A stretch of 64,000 nt of DNA from Sulfolobales archaeon HS-7 (GCA_019704295.1 AP024596.1:544001-608000); one strand, 5' to 3'; counted from the first letter of the stretch, positions 31,977 to 60,003 are shown. The notes: a model not told the origin generated them from the letters alone. Translations and numbers: made by a program.

Positions 31977-33803
31977 ATGCCCTTTGATTTGAGCGAATGT
32001 TATGAACAGGAATGGCTTATAACATTTGAAAACGGAGGCTACTCCTCATCTTCCCCATGTGGGATTAATACCAGAACTTACCACGGTTATCTAGTCCTAC
32101 CCCAAAACTCTGCAGAAAATAGATATGTTTTCCTTTCTAAGGTAGAAGATTTCATTGTAGGAGATGAACCGCTGCCTCTTTCTACGAATGAGTACTTAGG
32201 AGCTGTATATCCTCAGGGTTATAAATTCCTTGACTCGTTTGATTGGGAATCCAACTATGTGGAGTGGAATTACTCGTTCCCTGAAGGTAAGGTGAGGAAA
32301 AGGTTGATAGTAGACACAAAGTCAGCAACAGTATCATTAGAATACGGTGTAGAGGGGGATTGGAAACTAAGGATTTGCCCTTTAATTACCTTCAGAAGTC
32401 ACCATACTGTGAAACCCAGCGGATTTACTTACTTTACCTACAAGAAGGAAAACAACTTGTTAACAATATTTAGAGAACAGACGATTAAATTCCTTAACAT
32501 CCATGTACAAGGAAATTTCAACATGGAGGATACAGGTTATTGGTATTATAACATGCTCTATAGAAAGGACAAGGAAAACGGTAATAACTACCTCGATAAC
32601 GTATTTAATCCGTTTTGTATTGAAATATCAAGGAATAGTACTATTACGTTCTTCACAAATAAGTATAAACTAATCGAAATAAAAAAGAAACCGATGGATC
32701 CCTTGTCACTGCTTCGTCAGGCTGCCCTCTCATTTATAGTTAAGGATACCAATTACTCAATAATAGCTGGTTACCATTGGTTTGGAGAATGGGGAAGAGA
32801 TTCGCTGATCTCATTAGAGGGAATAGCGCTTCTAAACTCGCAATTCGAGGTGGCTAAAAACGTTCTGGAAAGGTATATAGCTAATAGTAATAGAGGGCTT
32901 TTGCCTAACTCCTTTGACAGCGAAGGGAATCCCACATATAGGGGAGTTGACGTATCGCTATGGTGGTTTATCGCCGCGTATAAGTACTACCAATACTCTC
33001 ATGATTTAGAGTTCATAAGAAAAAATCTTCCGCTAATGCAAGACGTTATTGAAAACTACATTAAGGGCAACGGAGTCGTTAAGTTCAGGAATGGTCTAAT
33101 CGAGCATATTGGAGCTCCGCGAACGTGGATGGATGCTGAATTCGAGGGTAATGTATACACACCACGAGAGGGATTTGCAGTAGAAATTAATGCCCTATGG
33201 TATAACGCGTTAAGGATCTTTGACTATTTCTATTATCTAGTAAATAAAACGCAAATTTATACCGAGATCTCCCAAAAAACCTTTGCCAAGTTTAACGAGT
33301 TGTTCGAGAGCGATTGGGGGTTGTACGATTACCTGACTTCTAATCTTAAAGGTGATACGTCAGTAAGACCAAATCAAATTTTTGCTGTATCCCTCCCTTT
33401 TCTCGTCGTTACCGAGAGGTTAGGGAAGAAGATACTCTACAATATTGAGAAGTTCCTGCTCAGACCTTATGGATTAAGTACGCTAAATGCAAATGATCCC
33501 AAATATAGGCCAGTCTACGAAGGGGATAGAAAAAGCAGAGATGCGGCATACCATAACGGACCTATATGGCCCTGGCTTATCGGAGGTTATATTGAGGCAA
33601 AAATTAAGCTCGAAAACGATGAGATACAGACGAAGCAATTAATGAGCAGATTGGAGACCCTTATAAAGTACGCTTACAAAAACAACGGATATATTCCAGA
33701 GCTCTTTGATGACGTACCACCATATAGACCAAGAGGATGTATAGCGCAAGCTTGGAGTGTAGCAGAGGTACTAAGATCGATTGATCTTATATCAAAGTAT
33801 TGA
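31977..33803 (+). CDS. Amylo-alpha-1,6-glucosidase (archaeal glycogen debranching enzyme, GH133)
   Basis: TRTYHG, AGYHWFGEWGRD, TWMDA, VEINALWY, RPNQ, YHNGPIWPW, QAWS. Confidence 0.93.
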   Translation: MPFDLSECYEQEWLITFENGGYSSSSPCGINTRTYHGYLVLPQNSAENRYVFLSKVEDFIVGDEPLPLSTNEYLGAVYPQGYKFLDSFDWESNYVEWNYSFPEGKVRKRLIVDTKSATVSLEYGVEGDWKLRICPLITFRSHHTVKPSGFTYFTYKKENNLLTIFREQTIKFLNIHVQGNFNMEDTGYWYYNMLYRKDKENGNNYLDNVFNPFCIEISRNSTITFFTNKYKLIEIKKKPMDPLSLLRQAALSFIVKDTNYSIIAGYHWFGEWGRDSLISLEGIALLNSQFEVAKNVLERYIANSNRGLLPNSFDSEGNPTYRGVDVSLWWFIAAYKYYQYSHDLEFIRKNLPLMQDVIENYIKGNGVVKFRNGLIEHIGAPRTWMDAEFEGNVYTPREGFAVEINALWYNALRIFDYFYYLVNKTQIYTEISQKTFAKFNELFESDWGLYDYLTSNLKGDTSVRPNQIFAVSLPFLVVTERLGKKILYNIEKFLLRPYGLSTLNANDPKYRPVYEGDRKSRDAAYHNGPIWPWLIGGYIEAKIKLENDEIQTKQLMSRLETLIKYAYKNNGYIPELFDDVPPYRPRGCIAQAWSVAEVLRSIDLISKY

Positions 33804-33879
33804 ACCTATGCTTTAGAGTTTTTTGTTCCCTTTAACCGCTTCCGCCTTGATATTATTACTTGTTAATTTTATTTCATGA

Positions 33880-34159
33880 ATGCTGATGTGAACAGTTTCA
33901 GATAAACTGTAAAGTTTATATACTTTATATATAAAACATATTTCATAAATCTTATCATCATATGTGGATGAGTTTTCTCGAAAGGTAATAGACTACACAA
34001 GATGTGCGCGTTTCCCCACATCTATGTGCATGTATGAGTTGGGGTTATCCGCTAGAGGGACGAAGACGCATGAACGGGGCAAACTTTGTGACTTTAATGA
34101 AGTCCAAGGACAGAGGATTGAGATGAAATATGAAATCTTATGAAGCGCAAACCCCAACT
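33880..34159 (+). mobile_element. Non-autonomous mini-element, copy A (IS607/IS605-type TnpB RNA region, no ORF)
   Basis: Aligns end to end with 38218-38495. TTTATATA core, then a structured region closed by a perfect 10-bp stem (34037-34046/34150-34159). Confidence 0.7.
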
Positions 34160-34161
34160 GT

Positions 34162-34192
34162 TTATAACTATTCTTATAACTAACTTATAACT
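34162..34192 (+). promoter_or_regulatory. Triple TTATAACT direct repeat overlapping the thi4 TATA box (candidate operator)
   Basis: TTATAACT at 34162, 34174 and 34185 (12- and 11-nt spacing); the last copy starts 28 nt before the thi4 ATG. Confidence 0.6.
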
Positions 34193-34212
34193 TCTTAATG
34201 GTATACTAATGT

Positions 34213-34998
34213 ATGAAACAGGTAAACGAGGTTAGAATTAGTAAATATATAATAAAGGAAACTATGGAAGATTGGTTAGACTTCATCGATCAAGACGTCA
34301 TTATAGTTGGGGCCGGGCCGGCTGGAATGTCAGCAGCCTACTATTTAGCCTCTGCAGGATTAAAGACTACTATCTTCGAAAGGAGACTAGGATTCGGTGG
34401 TGGTATAGGAGGAGGTGCGATGCTGTTTCATAAAATTATAATTGAAGAGCCAGCAAACCAAATACTAGACGAGATTCACGTTAAATACAAAAGGCTTGAG
34501 GAAGGAATTTACGTCGTTGATACCGCAGAGTTAATGGCGAAACTTGCCTCAGCGGCTATTGACGCAGGTGCTAGAATTATAAATGGGGTTTCCGTCGACG
34601 ACGTAATATTCAGGGAAAACCCACTGAGAGTAGCAGGGGTTGCGGTAGAGTGGACTGCGACTCAAATCGCAAACCTTCACGTGGATCCAATTTTTATTTC
34701 GGCAAAGGCAGTGATTGACGCCACAGGACATGATGCCGAAATAATATCGGTAGCATCAAGAAAGTTGCCTGAGCTCAACATAATGATTCCTGGAGAGAAA
34801 CCAGCTTATTCGGAAATAGCTGAGGAATTAACAGTGGAGAATACGGGTATGGTAGCCCCGGGTCTCTACGCTGCCGGTATGGCTGTAACTGAGGTTAAGG
34901 CGTTACCAAGAATGGGACCGATATTCGGTTCGATGTTAATGTCAGGTAAAAGAGTAGCTGAACTTATAATAAGTGATTTGCAAATTGTAAAGAAGTGA
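34213..34998 (+). CDS. thi4: Sulfide-dependent thiazole synthase Thi4
   Basis: GAGPAG, GGGIGGG, LHVDP (His, not the suicide Cys), ATGHDA, RMGPIFG. Confidence 0.95.
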
Positions 34999-35002
34999 TA
35001 AT

Positions 35003-35197
35003 ATGCCAATGGAACTTCACACGCAGGTCAACTCTTTACGATGCTACCAATGCGGAACCATAATCAGATCAAATCCTGTAGTTATAAAGACTTGCTGTGA
35101 TAATAAACCGAAAGTTTTTTGCAGTAAAAGATGTTATGAAGTTTGGTTAGGAAGATGGATGAGAAATCAGGAACAGGCCAGAGGCCGCTCGTTATAG
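35003..35197 (+). CDS. Small TRASH/YHS-like metal-binding protein
   Basis: CYQCG...FCSKRC motif. Confidence 0.7.
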   Translation: MPMELHTQVNSLRCYQCGTIIRSNPVVIKTCCDNKPKVFCSKRCYEVWLGRWMRNQEQARGRSL

Positions 35198-35784
35198 CAA
35201 TATCTGGTGCAAGCGGTATTCAATACGGATTAAGAGCAGTTTACCTTTTAAAGGAAATGGGGGAGAATTTCTCCGTAATAATAACAGAAGGAGCGAAAAA
35301 GGTTACTAAATCGGAATGCAGCGTGGATTTAAGAGAGGAGATCGAGAAAATTAGCGTAAAGGTTTTTGAGGATTCGGAATTAGACGCACCTTTCTCTAGT
35401 TCGAGTTATCTAATAAGGGGAATGATTGTTATACCCTGTAGTCTTGACGTATTAGCAATGATAGCTAGCGGGATAACTTCTACTTTAGTGGGGAGAGTTG
35501 CGGCTAACGTACTAAGGATGAGGTGGAGGTTAGTTCTAGTATTAAGGGAGACTCCCTTGGGTGTGATAGAATTGAGCAATGCATTAAAAGTGGCAAAAGC
35601 CGGTGGCATAATTCTTCCAACTTCTCCTGGATTTTATTCAGGAATGAGAACTGTGCGGGATGTAATAGACTTCGTTGTGGGAAAAACGTTTGATGCCTTT
35701 GGTATAGAGCACTCGATATATAAAAGGTGGTCTAAATATAATCAGCATCCTTGTGACCTAGCCTCTTTGACAGAATCTTCTTAG
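35155..35784 (+). CDS. ubiX: Flavin prenyltransferase
   Basis: ISGASG, FSSSS, IPCS, LRETP, SPGFY. Confidence 0.9.
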   Translation: MDEKSGTGQRPLVIAISGASGIQYGLRAVYLLKEMGENFSVIITEGAKKVTKSECSVDLREEIEKISVKVFEDSELDAPFSSSSYLIRGMIVIPCSLDVLAMIASGITSTLVGRVAANVLRMRWRLVLVLRETPLGVIELSNALKVAKAGGIILPTSPGFYSGMRTVRDVIDFVVGKTFDAFGIEHSIYKRWSKYNQHPCDLASLTESS

Positions 35785-36127
35785 CTGCCTTATCTATTTC
35801 ATCCTCGTATTCCATATCACTTTCCTCCTTTTTACCGTCATCCCTCTTTTCAATGGCGAAAGCACACTTATTTCCTGGAAGTAATGCCCTCTTATCGCAG
35901 TAAGCATACTGGCAATCTCCTGTAATACAGGTATCCCCGGCCCACCTACAGAAGCCAATTTTGTATGGATTTCCTTTCATATATTTGGTAGTTATCATAA
36001 GGGCTTTCTTATTACATCTAAAATAAGGGCAGAGATAGCTACATTTCTCCCCTAAAGGCATTGGTTTAAGTTCCCCATCAGAAATCTGAGGAGGTCTTCT
36101 CCCTATCAAATCATCACGTCTTGACAA
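35732..36127 (-). CDS. Conserved Cys-rich hypothetical protein
   Basis: 8 Cys in about 60 aa; TTG start preceded by GGAGG; last gene of the fbp-endA unit. Confidence 0.75.
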   Translation of the reverse strand: MSRRDDLIGRRPPQISDGELKPMPLGEKCSYLCPYFRCNKKALMITTKYMKGNPYKIGFCRWAGDTCITGDCQYAYCDKRALLPGNKCAFAIEKRDDGKKEESDMEYEDEIDKAAKKILSKRLGHKDADYI

Positions 36128-36163
36128 ACTCGTAAACCTCCAATACTCTTTCCTATTTCATTA

Positions 36164-36718
36164 TTATAATCTTACCCATTTAAATGTTACGTATCTTACA
36201 GTATTAAATTTTGAATTGACAAAAGCAAGTATAAGTTTTTTTCTAACACTATGAGATACTCTACCGAAGCCCATTATCTCGTTTGCAAGAAGATTACGAT
36301 CATCCTTCAACGCTATTACTAAATATGGTGCATGTTCTAGCCCCGGTCCTAAGTTGTATAGTGCGTAATCAGCTCCGTATTTTAATCCAGATCTTACAAT
36401 AAATCCCTTTTCTCTTAGAGATTTGTATACTGTAAAAAGTTCATCAAAACGCCTGTTGTAACCCTTTGCCTTCTCCATTAATTCACTATATCCTATCACC
36501 CTATTATCTATATCCCTTACCCTGAGCATCGAGCGCTCACTTAGGTAAACCGCTTCGACGAGTGAAAGCTCCAACGGCGTATTGACATCCTTTGCTTTAT
36601 TTACTCCTACTGGTTTTCCGAAGTAGCTGTAAATGTAAAGTCGTTTTGAGCTCTGAATATCGAATACTACAACTTTATCGCCGATTAGAACTCCATCGAT
36701 TGTCTGCTCACTTGCCAA
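36164..36718 (-). CDS. endA: tRNA splicing endonuclease, catalytic subunit
   Basis: LSLVEAVYL, GLKYGADYALY, GPGLEHA, RVSHSVRK (Y/H/K triad). Confidence 0.93.
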   Translation of the reverse strand: MASEQTIDGVLIGDKVVVFDIQSSKRLYIYSYFGKPVGVNKAKDVNTPLELSLVEAVYLSERSMLRVRDIDNRVIGYSELMEKAKGYNRRFDELFTVYKSLREKGFIVRSGLKYGADYALYNLGPGLEHAPYLVIALKDDRNLLANEIMGFGRVSHSVRKKLILAFVNSKFNTVRYVTFKWVRL

Positions 36719-36749
36719 AGAATTCCCCGACTTGGGAGCACTGTGAAAT

Positions 36750-37898
36750 TCAATCGCTACTAGTTTCGTTTACATGCTTTGATTCCTTGCCCCCTTTGAC
36801 GTCCTCCGCCTTCTTAAACCTTCCCTTTAATCTCTCCATGATTTTAGGCAACGTTGTATATTCCATTTCCGAAGGTTCTAATCTATGAGGCATAAAGGGT
36901 CCATGTCTTCTCATGTACTCTGTTACAATGTTCGCAGTTCTTCGGGTTTCGTCAAATGCCGGATCATCAAATAAGTCGCTAGGTCCTACCAGTTTCCCAT
37001 CTTTTATATTAAACCCTAACCCTATAAGACGGGGAGGGCCATCAAATCTAGTTGCCCTAGCATCCCTCTGTGATACCGGCATTAATGGTCCATAATGACT
37101 CCCCCTCATCCACCCTGCTACGAGATGAGGAAATGAAAAGGCTTCTAGGGCCTCTCCAAGGGCAGGAAATCCGTGTTGAAGCCTAACTATAAGCACTGGA
37201 TCGTCCTTTCCTACGTATTTCCCAGCTATCAGATTTAGTCTATCTACGGTTACAACAGTCGCCTGTTCGTCATCACCTCTTCTAAAGACTTTCCTAACTA
37301 TATACCTGCTCGGTGTTCCAATTAATGCTAGGATATCGTAAAGTTCCTCTGGGGATGATAAAGTTACGCTTTCCCCTTCGTATACGTCTAAAATTTCGAA
37401 ATTAAAACCTACATGCATTAGGGGGTCTATGACGAGCCCCGCCGTGTTAAAGGGATCAGCAAACATTTTGTATACTGGCAAATTGAACGCTCCAGGTTCT
37501 GTTTTATCCGCCATGAATATAGCTATAGGTTCCGACTTTCTCTCCTCAAATTCCATTTCAGCTACTCCTGGTCCCATACCTCTAATGTTTCCCGAAAAGG
37601 AATCCGATAATAGGTCTTGGCCTGCTGCATACAAACCTAATTCCTGAGCAACTTTTGTTGCTTCCTTAAATGCATTCCACGCTACCTCATGGACTTTTGA
37701 GTCATAAACTCCCCGGGTGTGAGTCATTATTAGCTCCATGTCATCTCCAACGTTAGTAATGTAAAAATCTCCAATTATCCCATCCTTTTTCGCCTGTGAT
37801 AACACTTTACTTGCGACGGCCATAGTATCTGGATGTGTTACATGATGTCCAGCTAATGAACCTATATCAGCCTTTATTACACTTATTGTAACCTTCAT
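36750..37898 (-). CDS. fbp: Fructose-1,6-bisphosphate aldolase/phosphatase
   Basis: KADIG, VGDD, GQDLL, DKTEPG, GKYVGKDDP, GWMRGSH, EMEYTTLP. Confidence 0.97.
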   Translation of the reverse strand: MKVTISVIKADIGSLAGHHVTHPDTMAVASKVLSQAKKDGIIGDFYITNVGDDMELIMTHTRGVYDSKVHEVAWNAFKEATKVAQELGLYAAGQDLLSDSFSGNIRGMGPGVAEMEFEERKSEPIAIFMADKTEPGAFNLPVYKMFADPFNTAGLVIDPLMHVGFNFEILDVYEGESVTLSSPEELYDILALIGTPSRYIVRKVFRRGDDEQATVVTVDRLNLIAGKYVGKDDPVLIVRLQHGFPALGEALEAFSFPHLVAGWMRGSHYGPLMPVSQRDARATRFDGPPRLIGLGFNIKDGKLVGPSDLFDDPAFDETRRTANIVTEYMRRHGPFMPHRLEPSEMEYTTLPKIMERLKGRFKKAEDVKGGKESKHVNETSSD

Positions 37899-37957
37899 AC
37901 CAACTTATTGAGTACTAGAATTAAATAGTTAGTCTGTGAGAATCGTCAATGGACTTT

Positions 37958-38659
37958 ATGAACGTGCTACCCCAAACCGTGATTTCCTGCTTCTGTGGGT
38001 AACCTGGATTCCTAACAAGGGTTTCATTTAAGGTATCCTGTAAGTATTGTACTAGAGAGATTATGAAGGGTCTTAACCGATGTAATTTACCGACTCAATT
38101 GGAACAACGTAGCTCAAGCAACCCAGGTCTTAGACACATTGTGTTTTTTACATTATAGAAACAATAAAGGGATTATCCTCCATGGAGCTTACATCCCCTA
38201 GTCCCCCTTCTTATTGAAGTGTCGTTGTCAACAGTTTCGAATAAACAGTAAAGTTAATGTATTTTATATATAAAATATATTTTTTAATCCAGTTACCGGT
38301 AAATGAGCTTCCCGGAAGGGTGACAGGGCACTAGATGCGCGTATGTTCCCATACATACATGAGCAGGTGTGGGTTAAGGTTATCCCGCTAAAGGGATAAG
38401 GGAGGATGAATAGGACAAACCCCCCTGACTTCGGCGAAGTCCAAGGGCTGAGGATTGGGAACAAATATCGTGAAATCCTAGAAAGCCCAACCTCCGTAGG
38501 CAAAACCCTTACAAGATTTTCAATATATCTCTGGAACATAATAATGAAACTAATGTTTTTCACATTTAAACTTAGGAAACCCCTTTACTTTTCAACGTTT
38601 ATCTTCATTTAGTGGTTCAATGGACTATCCATCCTCACGAGTCTTTCGCCCCCTTTGTA
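37958..38659 (-). mobile_element. Decayed IS605-type (tnpB) element, interrupted by mini-element B
   Basis: Right-end-like GAAGCAGGAA...GTTCAT at 37958-37995; GFPKFK-like relic near 38565-38585; left-end-like AAAGGGGGCGAAAGACTCG at about 38638-38656, matching the ends at 45050-45077 and 59985-60008. Confidence 0.5.
38218..38495 (+). mobile_element. Non-autonomous mini-element, copy B
   Basis: Homologous to 33880-34159 (AACAGTTTC..ATAAAC.GTAAAGTT, TTTATATATAAAA, GGTTATCC, GAAGTCCAAGG, GAGGATTG, TGAAATC). Confidence 0.7.
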
Positions 38660-38900
38660 TTAGCCTTTGTATTAGTTTGATTACCGTTCGCAGTCTGATA
38701 TCAATAACATTCATCGACAAAATAAGCATCACCTAGACGCCTAAGCGAAGATCGATGTGGTATGCCTCTGCTCCGATTACAGTCCCACGCTAGACACTAA
38801 ATGTTAACTACTGGTTGCGACTCTCAGAGCTAGTGGACCCCCATGTGTAAGGTGAAACCAAGAAACAAGAAGCTCCTTCTCTAGAGAGGGGTGGGCTCAC
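38660..38900 (+). mobile_element. SMN1-like IS605-derived mini-element relic
   Basis: AGACGCCTAAGC..GATGTGGTATGCCTCTGCTCC matches 53138-53416 (minus); ends with GAAGCTCC-hairpin..CTCAC. Confidence 0.55.
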
Positions 38901-44328: not shown

Positions 44329-45072
44329 GTGAACTCACTCAGCCCTAAACGGGGCTTCCTGCTTCTCAGCTACACCTTGCCAGTACCGAAGTACTAGTAG
44401 AAGGTGGAACTACACAGGCCCTAAGGATCGCACCGACTGCGATCAGCGTAAGATTTTTAGGGAGGCGTTGTAATCGGGATCGGCTACCCATTCGCATTGA
44501 GGACAAGGAGAGCGCTCATTCAAAGAGGGTTAAATCTCCTCTCACACGACTACATTTAGCGCAGGTTTTGGATCCGTATGCGGGATCTACAAGGGTCAGT
44601 TCCCTGCGGCGCTTCTCCAACTGGTACTTCAAGACTAAATTCAGCTCATCGAAGGCGACATCGCGGAGCCTCATCCTCATTTTTCGGAGGGATCTGCCTA
44701 CAAGTTTCTTGACGTTTATGTCACCCACGACGACAACATCATAGTTTTCAGCGAAGTATTCACTAACTTCATATAGAGATCCCTCCTAAGGTTCTTAAGG
44801 TGCTCGTTGGCCTTGAACAACTTCATCTTTGCCTTGAACCAGTTTTTGGAGAGGAACTTCTTCCTCGATAAGATCGTAATTGAGTACCTCACCTTCCACA
44901 GAGCCCCTTCGTAAGGCTCGTGTTGGGGGAAATACTCCCCGTCTTACGTCGCAATGAGGTTCTTAATGCCCATGTCCGCACCACAACCTTATTGACTTTA
45001 GGTAGCCTAGGGAACTCGTAACTCTCGACTACGAAAAAGATGAAATCATCCTTCCGGGTTTTCTGCCCCCTT
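44329..45072 (-). mobile_element. tnpB: IS200/IS605-family tnpB pseudogene with both ends
   Basis: Fragments [31 protein letters not shown] and CPQCEWVADPDYNA. Right end ...GAAGCAGGAAGCCCCG..GTTCAC at 44329; left end follows TTCAA (45073-45077). Confidence 0.85.
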
Positions 45073-53567: not shown

Positions 53568-53696
53568 GGGCCCGTAGCTCAGTTAGGCAGAGCGTTGGGC
53601 TCCAGATAATCTTTGGGTCTTCCGACCATAAAGGGATGATATATATCTGGAGCGGGAGAGACCCAAAGGTCGCGGGTTCAAATCCCGTCGGGCCCA
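53568..53696 (+). tRNA. tRNA-Trp(CCA) with a 55-nt intron at 37/38 (53606-53660)
   Basis: GGGCCCG/CGGGCCC acceptor stem, TTGGG/CCCAA anticodon stem, CCA at 53602-04, GGTTCAAATCC T-arm; CTCC/GGAG helix at the splice sites. Confidence 0.95.
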
Positions 53697-59310: not shown

Positions 59311-60003
59311 ATGAACTCATTCCTTCCTAAAGGAAGCGACTTCCTACTTCTCAGACCCACCTTGTCAGTAATATAGGGTGGAGCTCTACGGGCCCTGAGG
59401 GTCGCACCGATCTACGTAAGATTTTCAGGGAATCGTTGTAATCTAGATCGGTTCCCTACCTACAATGGGAACAGAAAAAGATTCGATCGGAGAGGGTAAG
59501 GTGTTCCCTCGCTTGACAGTATTTAACGTGCAATAAATGTAATTTACTTTAAAAACTAACTTTTAGTACTTAGAAATAGCTACCTTAAAACGCTCAATTG
59601 GGGCAATAATACAGGGGACTATAAGGAATTAAACGGCTTGGTTTACTTCATAGGCTTGAAATATCCAGCAGTACCCTCAGTAAACGTCGACCTCATTGCC
59701 CTGAAAACCTCGTTTTTAGCCTTGATCCTTGAAAGATATGCTTAATAAACTAATTTTATATTATCTCTCCTCGCAAGCAAGCGAATTTAAATTCTAGATA
59801 GATTGTTTTATAACTTTTTAGTTTATTTAGTTATTCATGTTAATTATGCATTGAGCGCAATCCCAGGCCTTTAATGCCGTCAACTTTTATCGACGTAAGT
59901 CCTAAACTTAAATCCCACATCGGACACTGGGAGAACACTACGTCATGATTTGTTATTCTTTAGGACAAGGAGATATCCATTCCGTGCGGGTTTTTCGCCA
60001 CCT
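59311..60003 (-). mobile_element. Internally deleted IS605-type tnpB element
   Basis: 59311-59500 aligns with the right end at 44329-44530 (CTTCTCAG..CACCTTG..GGGCCCT..TCGCACCGA..CGTAAGATTTT). N-terminal relic DVGFKFRTY near 59900; left end follows TTCAA (60004-60008). Confidence 0.7.

Follow-up and report, generated by a model that had tools for sequence, protein, structure and literature searches.

The window analysed here is a 64,000-nt stretch of the genome of Sulfolobales archaeon HS-7 (AP024596.1:544001-608000), with positions counted from its first nucleotide. Two protein-free cassettes, which we call A and B, lie on its plus strand, A just upstream of the gene thi4. A multi-copy alignment that included flanking DNA, together with end statistics, refined their limits to 33882-34155 (A) and 38221-38495 (B); the element bodies span 33885-34155 and 38224-38495, the first three bases of each cassette being a conserved junction trinucleotide. 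As an initial sequence-only reading of this DNA had proposed, the two copies are homologous from end to end (pairwise alignment; BLAST E 2.6e-23, 70% identity), and the left block, AT-rich TATA region and shared 3′ blocks named in that reading are all found in both. A and B are almost certainly miniature derivatives of an ISC1904-type IS607 transposon that belong to the RNA-257 family, and in this genome they are probably non-functional relics. The features of the locus are listed below.

33882-33884, plus strand: remnant of the left-junction trinucleotide of A (GCC in the family, here GCT), placed by end statistics in relatives and by analogy with IS607
33885-33913, plus strand: left end of the IS607-type parent in A, carrying a 7-bp imperfect hairpin; both intact elements of relatives and decayed full-length copies of the same genome have left ends that align with profile positions 1-32
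33914-33936, plus strand: TATA region of A, with a family-conserved box at 33915-33922 and a second box at 33924-33936, equivalent to the parental tnpA promoter
33951-33992, plus strand: short hairpin of A from the zinc-ribbon coding region of tnpB, corresponding to the tip of the full-length RNA's long 5′ hairpin
33998-34155, plus strand: last ~155 nt of tnpB and right end in A (guide-RNA scaffold region), ending with four C; supported by BLAST/nhmmer matches 3′ of the TnpB zinc-ribbon, 86% consensus identity to the intact element L038 and tblastn to the TnpB C-terminus
34156-34175, plus strand: would-be guide flank of A (~20 nt), by its place relative to the right end; the thi4 promoter region follows closely downstream
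34213-34998, plus strand: thi4 open reading frame (Pfam Thi4)
38221-38223, plus strand: remnant of the left-junction trinucleotide of B (here GTC), placed by end statistics
38224-38330, plus strand: left end of B with its TATA region (38262-38275) and a degraded 5′ hairpin, from pairwise and multi-copy alignment and the profile
38331-38495, plus strand: tnpB 3′ end and right end of B (scaffold region), from BLAST, the profile and tblastn to TnpB residues 371-433 (52% identity)
38496-38515, plus strand: would-be guide flank of B, by position relative to the right end

Neither copy contains a credible open reading frame, in agreement with the sequence-only reading; the frames of 50-99 aa that can be found are leftovers of the tnpB frame or chance occurrences, and a protein-gene interpretation was rejected because the frame is broken. 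The A/B pair is not special, since BLAST and profile searches of the whole genome (2.15 Mb in one contig, 39.6% G+C, Sulfolobaceae) identified about 19 near-full copies of the ~270-bp repeat, as well as left-end-only and right-end-only fragments. The copies occur on both strands and are dispersed, and on the latter ground a CRISPR-like or tandem repeat was rejected. The same architecture is present in 30 of 47 Sulfolobaceae genomes and in 12 of 14 genera, where both miniature and full-length forms exist. Rfam returned no match at gathering thresholds across the whole window, nor at E values up to 10 across positions 33700-38700, and a known RNA family was rejected because Rfam is empty at the cassettes.

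Full-length elements reveal the parentage of the cassettes. Three partial matches (cassette positions 115/119-276) in the same genome lie directly 3′ of a TnpB zinc-ribbon (PF07282), at 198.6, 623.3 and 665.5 kb, and cassette positions 1-50 match about 1.9 kb upstream of two of these right ends, where they mark the left ends of the same 1.9-kb units; in the DNA between the ends, the genes for a MerR-HTH serine recombinase and for TnpB are both broken. An intact parent of 1933 bp, L038, was found in the genome G020, with its left end at 650, tnpA at 714-1295, tnpB at 1270-2568 and right end at 2582. The tnpA gene encodes Pfam Resolvase (PF00239) and HTH_17/MerR domains, and tnpB a protein of 433 aa with OrfB_IS605 and Cas12f1-like_TNB domains. 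Nine further intact elements in relatives are 1.90-1.94 kb in length; parents in relatives carry a tnpB of 420-435 aa and have right ends that close with four C. These intact elements identify the parent as an IS607-family element of the ISC1904/ISC1913/ISC1926 size class. Intact elements in L038, L063, L065-L067, L070-L072 and L075-L077 have left ends that are matched by profile positions 1-45/66, and the cassette consensus is 86% identical to the right end of L038 over 169 nt. The resemblance of the 3′ part to tnpB 3′ ends, pointed out in the sequence-only reading, is thus real: by BLAST, Pfam context and the L038 comparison, the 3′ ~155 nt come from an element with TnpB, of which they comprise the 3′ end of tnpB and the right end. 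That reading had left the choice between IS605 and IS607 elements open, and only the second half stands, because the parental tnpA encodes a serine recombinase. An IS605 or PATE origin was rejected for the same reason, the parental TnpA being a MerR-HTH serine recombinase (Resolvase, PF00239) and not a Y1 HUH enzyme.

The promoter of the cassettes is also inherited from the parent. In intact elements the tnpA start codon lies ~65 nt past the left end, so that the conserved TATA box at profile positions 33-42 can be identified as the tnpA promoter of a leaderless mRNA. The miniature form fuses this promoter to the RNA-coding tail, placing it ~10 nt upstream of a shortened 5′ hairpin; consensus positions 77-105 derive from the coding region of the first CxxC of the zinc-ribbon, which lies ~100 nt further upstream in the parent. 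The miniature form has neither tnpA nor most of tnpB, about 1.65 kb having been deleted in two pieces. With both the left end and the promoter matched to intact elements, the cassettes are indeed what they had been proposed to be, non-autonomous elements reduced to a promoter and a guide-RNA scaffold. They share homologous left and right ends, and TTG near each end, with IS607 elements of the ISC1904/ISC1913/ISC1926 type (PMC4058570), but lack the genes for the MerR-HTH serine recombinase and TnpB that ISC1904-type parents encode.

A transcribed counterpart of the cassettes has been described. RNA-257 (Tang 2005; Wurtzel 2010; Maertens et al. 2013, PMC3674436) comprises four transcribed intergenic paralogues, RNA-257 1-4, in Saccharolobus (Sulfolobus) solfataricus P2, whose core corresponds to the distal part of the SSO1182 coding region, SSO1182 being the orfB gene in a transposon of the ISC1904 family (PMC3674436). 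The published RNA-257-1 forward primer (PMC3674436) occurs once, in the genome G028, and the cassette profile matches this locus (G028:739533) over positions 1-270 with an E value of 5.9e-40, a match which places A and B in the RNA-257 family. The 5′ end of RNA-257-1 lies 61 nt past the left end and ~20 nt past the TATA box, and the reverse primer lies ~10 nt beyond the element end. From this mapped 5′ end and the position of the tnpA start codon, transcription of A would be expected to start near 33943-33950. The RNA-257 promoter was originally ascribed to chance nucleotide changes (PMC3674436); the alignments show that it is not a chance creation but the transposon's own left-end promoter. 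A and B resemble RNA-257 in being intergenic and protein-free, with their own Box A/TATA promoter and a core homologous to distal ISC1904 orfB (tnpB). RNA-257-1 differs in keeping the whole long 5′ hairpin, so that it is ~30 nt longer, and in being a proven transcript with an antisense effect, encoded in a genome with nine intact cognate TnpBs, whereas A and B are more decayed, orphaned and known from sequence alone.

The seven terminal bases, which close with four C, are invariant in 51-52 of 52 right ends taken from relatives, and 44 of these ends are followed by T or A. The left junction has a nearly invariant G-C-C-G-T (G in 34/38, C in 36/38 and C in 38/38), preceded by two A-rich positions (-2 and -1). 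A bacterial IS607 has TGGG as its target-adjacent motif and TCGG as its right end, which have the GG crossover in common and differ at -3 (bioRxiv 2023.11.20.567912), and in ISC1904 a TTG is found at 2-4 bp from either end (Boocock and Rice 2013, PMC4058570). By analogy, we infer a CC crossover, a GCC-type target-adjacent motif and an element body that starts with GTTG; positions 33882-33884 of A would then be what is left of a target-adjacent motif whose last two bases form the CC crossover. The GCC trinucleotide is mutated in both A and B.

The last 300 nt of full-length elements fold into a long 5′ hairpin and a multi-helix 3′ domain, and the L038 RNA folds at -133.9 kcal/mol (z -6.3 against shuffles). 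An alignment of 60 sequences (A2) brought together 14 miniature copies and two decayed right ends from the HS-7 genome with copies of both forms, miniature and full-length, from 11 further genomes. Run on the raw MAFFT alignment, RNAalifold found only 11-18 pairs, because indels and decayed copies blur the alignment, and a hand-built structure of 43 pairs was therefore tested instead. In A2, 89.1% of cells are paired, compared with 28-54% when the partners are slid, although a structure taken from single-sequence folds of alignment members is favoured in, and inflates, this control. Both-side changes number 90 cells against 22-41 in the slid controls, and none of 500 shuffles reached the observed covariation score. 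In the stem of the hairpin specific to miniature elements, three positions in a row each have three or four pair types. Since the parent moves as double-stranded DNA by means of a serine recombinase, the natural reading of this covariation would be selection on an RNA. Among miniature copies from eight genomes, the stem of the miniature-specific hairpin (A2 columns 86-91 with 116-121) shifts in sequence between genera while its pairs are kept. The pattern suggests that miniature elements evolve as lineages of their own and do not arise anew from each parent.

The description of the cassettes as structured RNA therefore holds for the family across genera, by covariation, but not for A and B, whose folding energies are those of shuffled sequences (z +0.13 for A and -0.58 for B); RNA-257-1 has z -2.7. 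In A, seven of nine stem pairs remain in the hairpin at 33951-33992, whose stem covaries across miniature-element subfamilies (helix 2). The perfect 10-bp closing stem reported for A is real (34037-34046 with 34150-34159), but only six of its base pairs are conserved in the family (helix 4, 94% of cells paired), and the other four are formed with flanking DNA outside the element. The divergent stem claimed at the same place in B was also confirmed, with 5 bp kept (38376-38381 with 38489-38493) and one base pair changed on both sides. Two compensated pairs, in B and in the copy at 344 kb, fit the closing helix that was scored, one of two candidates, the other joining the G-rich run near profile position 125 to the last bases.

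The state of the family in the HS-7 genome is one of general decay. A tblastn search of this genome with the intact G020 proteins found only cognate tnpA and tnpB genes broken by stops or frameshifts, the best cognate copy having seven stops; intact genes number one in G020, two in G007, two in G036 and nine in G028. Copies within the HS-7 genome differ from their own consensus by 7.6-30% (A by 15.9% and B by 20.3%), and their mean pairwise identity is 67%, compared with 83% in G020, 86% in G007 and 99.6% in G036. All regions of the cassette are about equally worn in these copies (0.72-0.85 conserved). Paired columns are conserved at 0.775 and unpaired columns at 0.794, and 77.9% pairing compares with a shuffle mean of 78.0%. 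To judge from these comparisons, the pattern is that of neutral decay after extinction of the family in this lineage. The genome does encode three intact TnpBs, of 414, 419 and 424 aa, whose genes occupy genome positions 1019780-1021054, 1659169-1660413 and 1939711-1940970. They are 26-35% identical to the cognate TnpB over part of their length, and their 3′ regions gave no match to the cassette profile at an E value of 10 with filters off. In the sequence-only reading, the lack of any intact TnpB was to mark the cassettes as dead MITEs; the three distant proteins mean that this does not apply to the letter, but with no intact cognate TnpB it does apply in spirit. We consider it probable that A and B are non-functional relics in this genome.

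Several observations weigh against the relic interpretation. Both A and B keep a plausible TATA box, and use of a foreign scaffold by one of the three intact but distant TnpBs is conceivable on sequence alone. There are 13 pair-keeping both-side changes among the HS-7 copies, including one in the closing stem of B; all 13 are from GC to AT, and overall pairing is at the level of chance. The least decayed HS-7 copy, at 2069.5 kb, still folds with a z of -2.0, from which it follows that the extinction may be fairly recent. The genome, though a single contig, is 91% complete by marker genes. Lastly, the target-adjacent motif and crossover dinucleotide are drawn by analogy, and no unoccupied site turned up within the same genus when a G020 copy was searched together with its flanks.

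An alternative of wider scope is that the miniature element is a long-lived, self-promoted lineage of stand-alone guide RNAs, which would have been selected across the Sulfolobaceae because a TnpB acting in trans guards its copies. RNA-257 would then be primarily a TnpB guide RNA, and the better-kept HS-7 copies could perhaps still act on a non-cognate TnpB or as small RNAs. The covarying hairpin that is specific to the miniature elements points in this direction, and we regard the reading as unlikely.

It is decidedly improbable that the cassettes have been co-opted as regulatory small RNAs, pairing with mRNAs that bear an antisense copy of the element in an untranslated region (UTR). The precedent comes from within the family, since RNA-257-1 lowers the level of an mRNA whose 3′ UTR carries an opposite-strand ISC1904 end (PMC3674436), and HS-7 copies are present on both strands. 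However, the HS-7 copies are 54-84% identical to one another, which is poor for duplexes at growth temperatures of ~75-80 °C, and own-copy conservation revealed no constraint on any region of the cassette.

We consider it very improbable that A and B are still working stand-alone guide-RNA genes, driven from their TATA boxes and loaded in trans on TnpB or a nuclease-dead derivative. An architecture of exactly promoter plus scaffold, covariation at the family level, the three intact TnpBs of the genome and the accepted idea of gene-less elements with trans guide RNAs (Meers et al., PMC10055086) all speak in its favour. Against it, the genome has no intact cognate TnpB, the 3′ ends of the distant TnpBs are unrelated to the cassettes, A and B lack the family fold, and the HS-7 copies decay as neutral sequence with no excess of pairing. 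The would-be guides at 34156-34175 and 38496-38515 have a single perfect match in the genome, their own site. A genome search showed that these own sites are preceded by the element end and not by the motif, and near matches, with two or three mismatches, also lack the motif. The proposal that A and B could program a TnpB in trans is therefore not upheld for this genome. The guide of A had further been said to match the thi4 operator/TATA region, but such a match is a built-in property of any insertion of this kind, as the guide is the element's own 3′ flank, and does not speak for regulation. A TldR-type nuclease-dead TnpB regulator of thi4 was rejected because there is no cognate protein and because the guide is the element's own flank, preceded by the element end.

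We would give hardly any credence to copy A as a mobile promoter whose TATA-driven transcription runs through the right end into thi4: the two are co-oriented and only 57 nt apart, and the RNA-257-1 template in S. solfataricus does extend beyond the element end, but suitably placed TATA-like sequences are kept between 34156 and the thi4 start at 34213, so that thi4 has a promoter region of its own, the single Sulfolobaceae Thi4 relative that a pattern-based search of named genomes brought up (70% identical, with different neighbours) has no element upstream, and B has no co-oriented gene within 470 nt. The next Thi4 matches were to Nezhaarchaeota and Methanomethylicia at ~60%, in a search biased by peptide patterns. 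They offer only a hint that thi4 may have had an unusual history.

We favour a model in which a miniature element without protein genes, derived from an IS607 element of the ISC1904 type, inserted long ago at the two sites of A and B. The steps of the model are modelled on work with bacterial IS607 and would apply to genomes with live parents. There, the serine recombinase would act in trans to mobilize the cassette, with CC as the overlap dinucleotide, and transcription from the cassette's own promoter would yield a ~200-nt scaffold extending into the 3′ flank, which would serve as the guide. A TnpB acting in trans could use this RNA to cut the empty donor site, recognized by the GCC-type motif and the flank, and repair would then restore the element. 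In the HS-7 genome, the parents are defunct and the copies have diverged, and A and B are perhaps still transcribed but would no longer serve as guides.

The kind of element to which A and B belong is already known, from RNA-257 and from gene-less guide-RNA elements (Meers et al.), and A and B are new, decayed members of it. PATEs are gene-less IS200/IS605 derivatives whose guide RNAs serve TnpB in trans (Meers et al. 2023, PMC10055086). Like the cassettes, they are non-autonomous elements consisting of ends only, with the scaffold kept and the transposase and nuclease encoded elsewhere. PATEs move in single-stranded form by a Y1 (HUH) transposase that reads end hairpins, whereas the parent of the cassettes uses a serine recombinase and double-stranded DNA, and the cassettes, unlike PATEs, carry a dedicated promoter from tnpA. 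The 320-bp non-autonomous element SMN1 of S. islandicus, mobilized by ISC1733 (Berkner and Lipps 2007, as cited in PMC3718332), is comparable, going by the description given there, as a short Sulfolobus element that encodes no protein and is linked to an insertion sequence with an orfB; by the same description it differs in size and in its named partner, ISC1733. The clostridial IS607 IStron (bioRxiv 2023.11.20.567912) provided the model for the mechanism, with excision by a serine recombinase at a core dinucleotide and a motif that ends in that dinucleotide. In both systems the motif and the right end would differ at -3, as GCC/CCC in the cassette family, where the motif is the putative one described above, and as GGG/CGG in the IStron; the IStron is bacterial, contains a group I intron and has no sequence similarity to the cassettes.

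The analysis also brought to light other mobile-element remains and an RNA gene. Debris of a second, unrelated TnpB element family lies in the window at 44516-44785, 44354-44572 and 59312-59510 (all on the minus strand), and consists of another tnpB fragment (an 89-aa frame with a partial zinc-ribbon match) and 3′-end relics of the family of the intact 419/424-aa TnpBs. Outside the window, a second IS607-like unit on the minus strand (genome positions 684524-685108 and 683246-683770) has a serine recombinase 33% identical to the cognate one and an adjoining truncated tnpB. In G020, a separate dispersed repeat of ~98 bp (L046:549-646) sits beside a miniature element and recurs at ~30 other G020 sites with 83-89% identity; it is probably another miniature transposon family. 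Rfam identified a tRNA at window positions 53568-53696 (plus strand; 129 nt, 59 bits) for which ARAGORN made no call, presumably an intron-containing archaeal tRNA, and the window also carries a tRNA splicing endonuclease gene at 36164-36718 (minus strand).

Overall, the cassettes are neither a regulator of thi4 nor a new class of RNA, and should be annotated as transposon relics. Our work connects RNA-257, an antisense small RNA reported in 2013, with that end of an IS607 TnpB element from which guide RNAs are made. As well as tracing the promoter of this RNA to the left end of the transposon, it shows that a miniature form made of promoter plus scaffold is spread over most genera of the Sulfolobaceae, with compensatory changes in its helices. 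The family represents a convenient natural test case for trans guide RNAs in archaea, best studied where the nuclease survives, as in S. solfataricus, G020 and G007.

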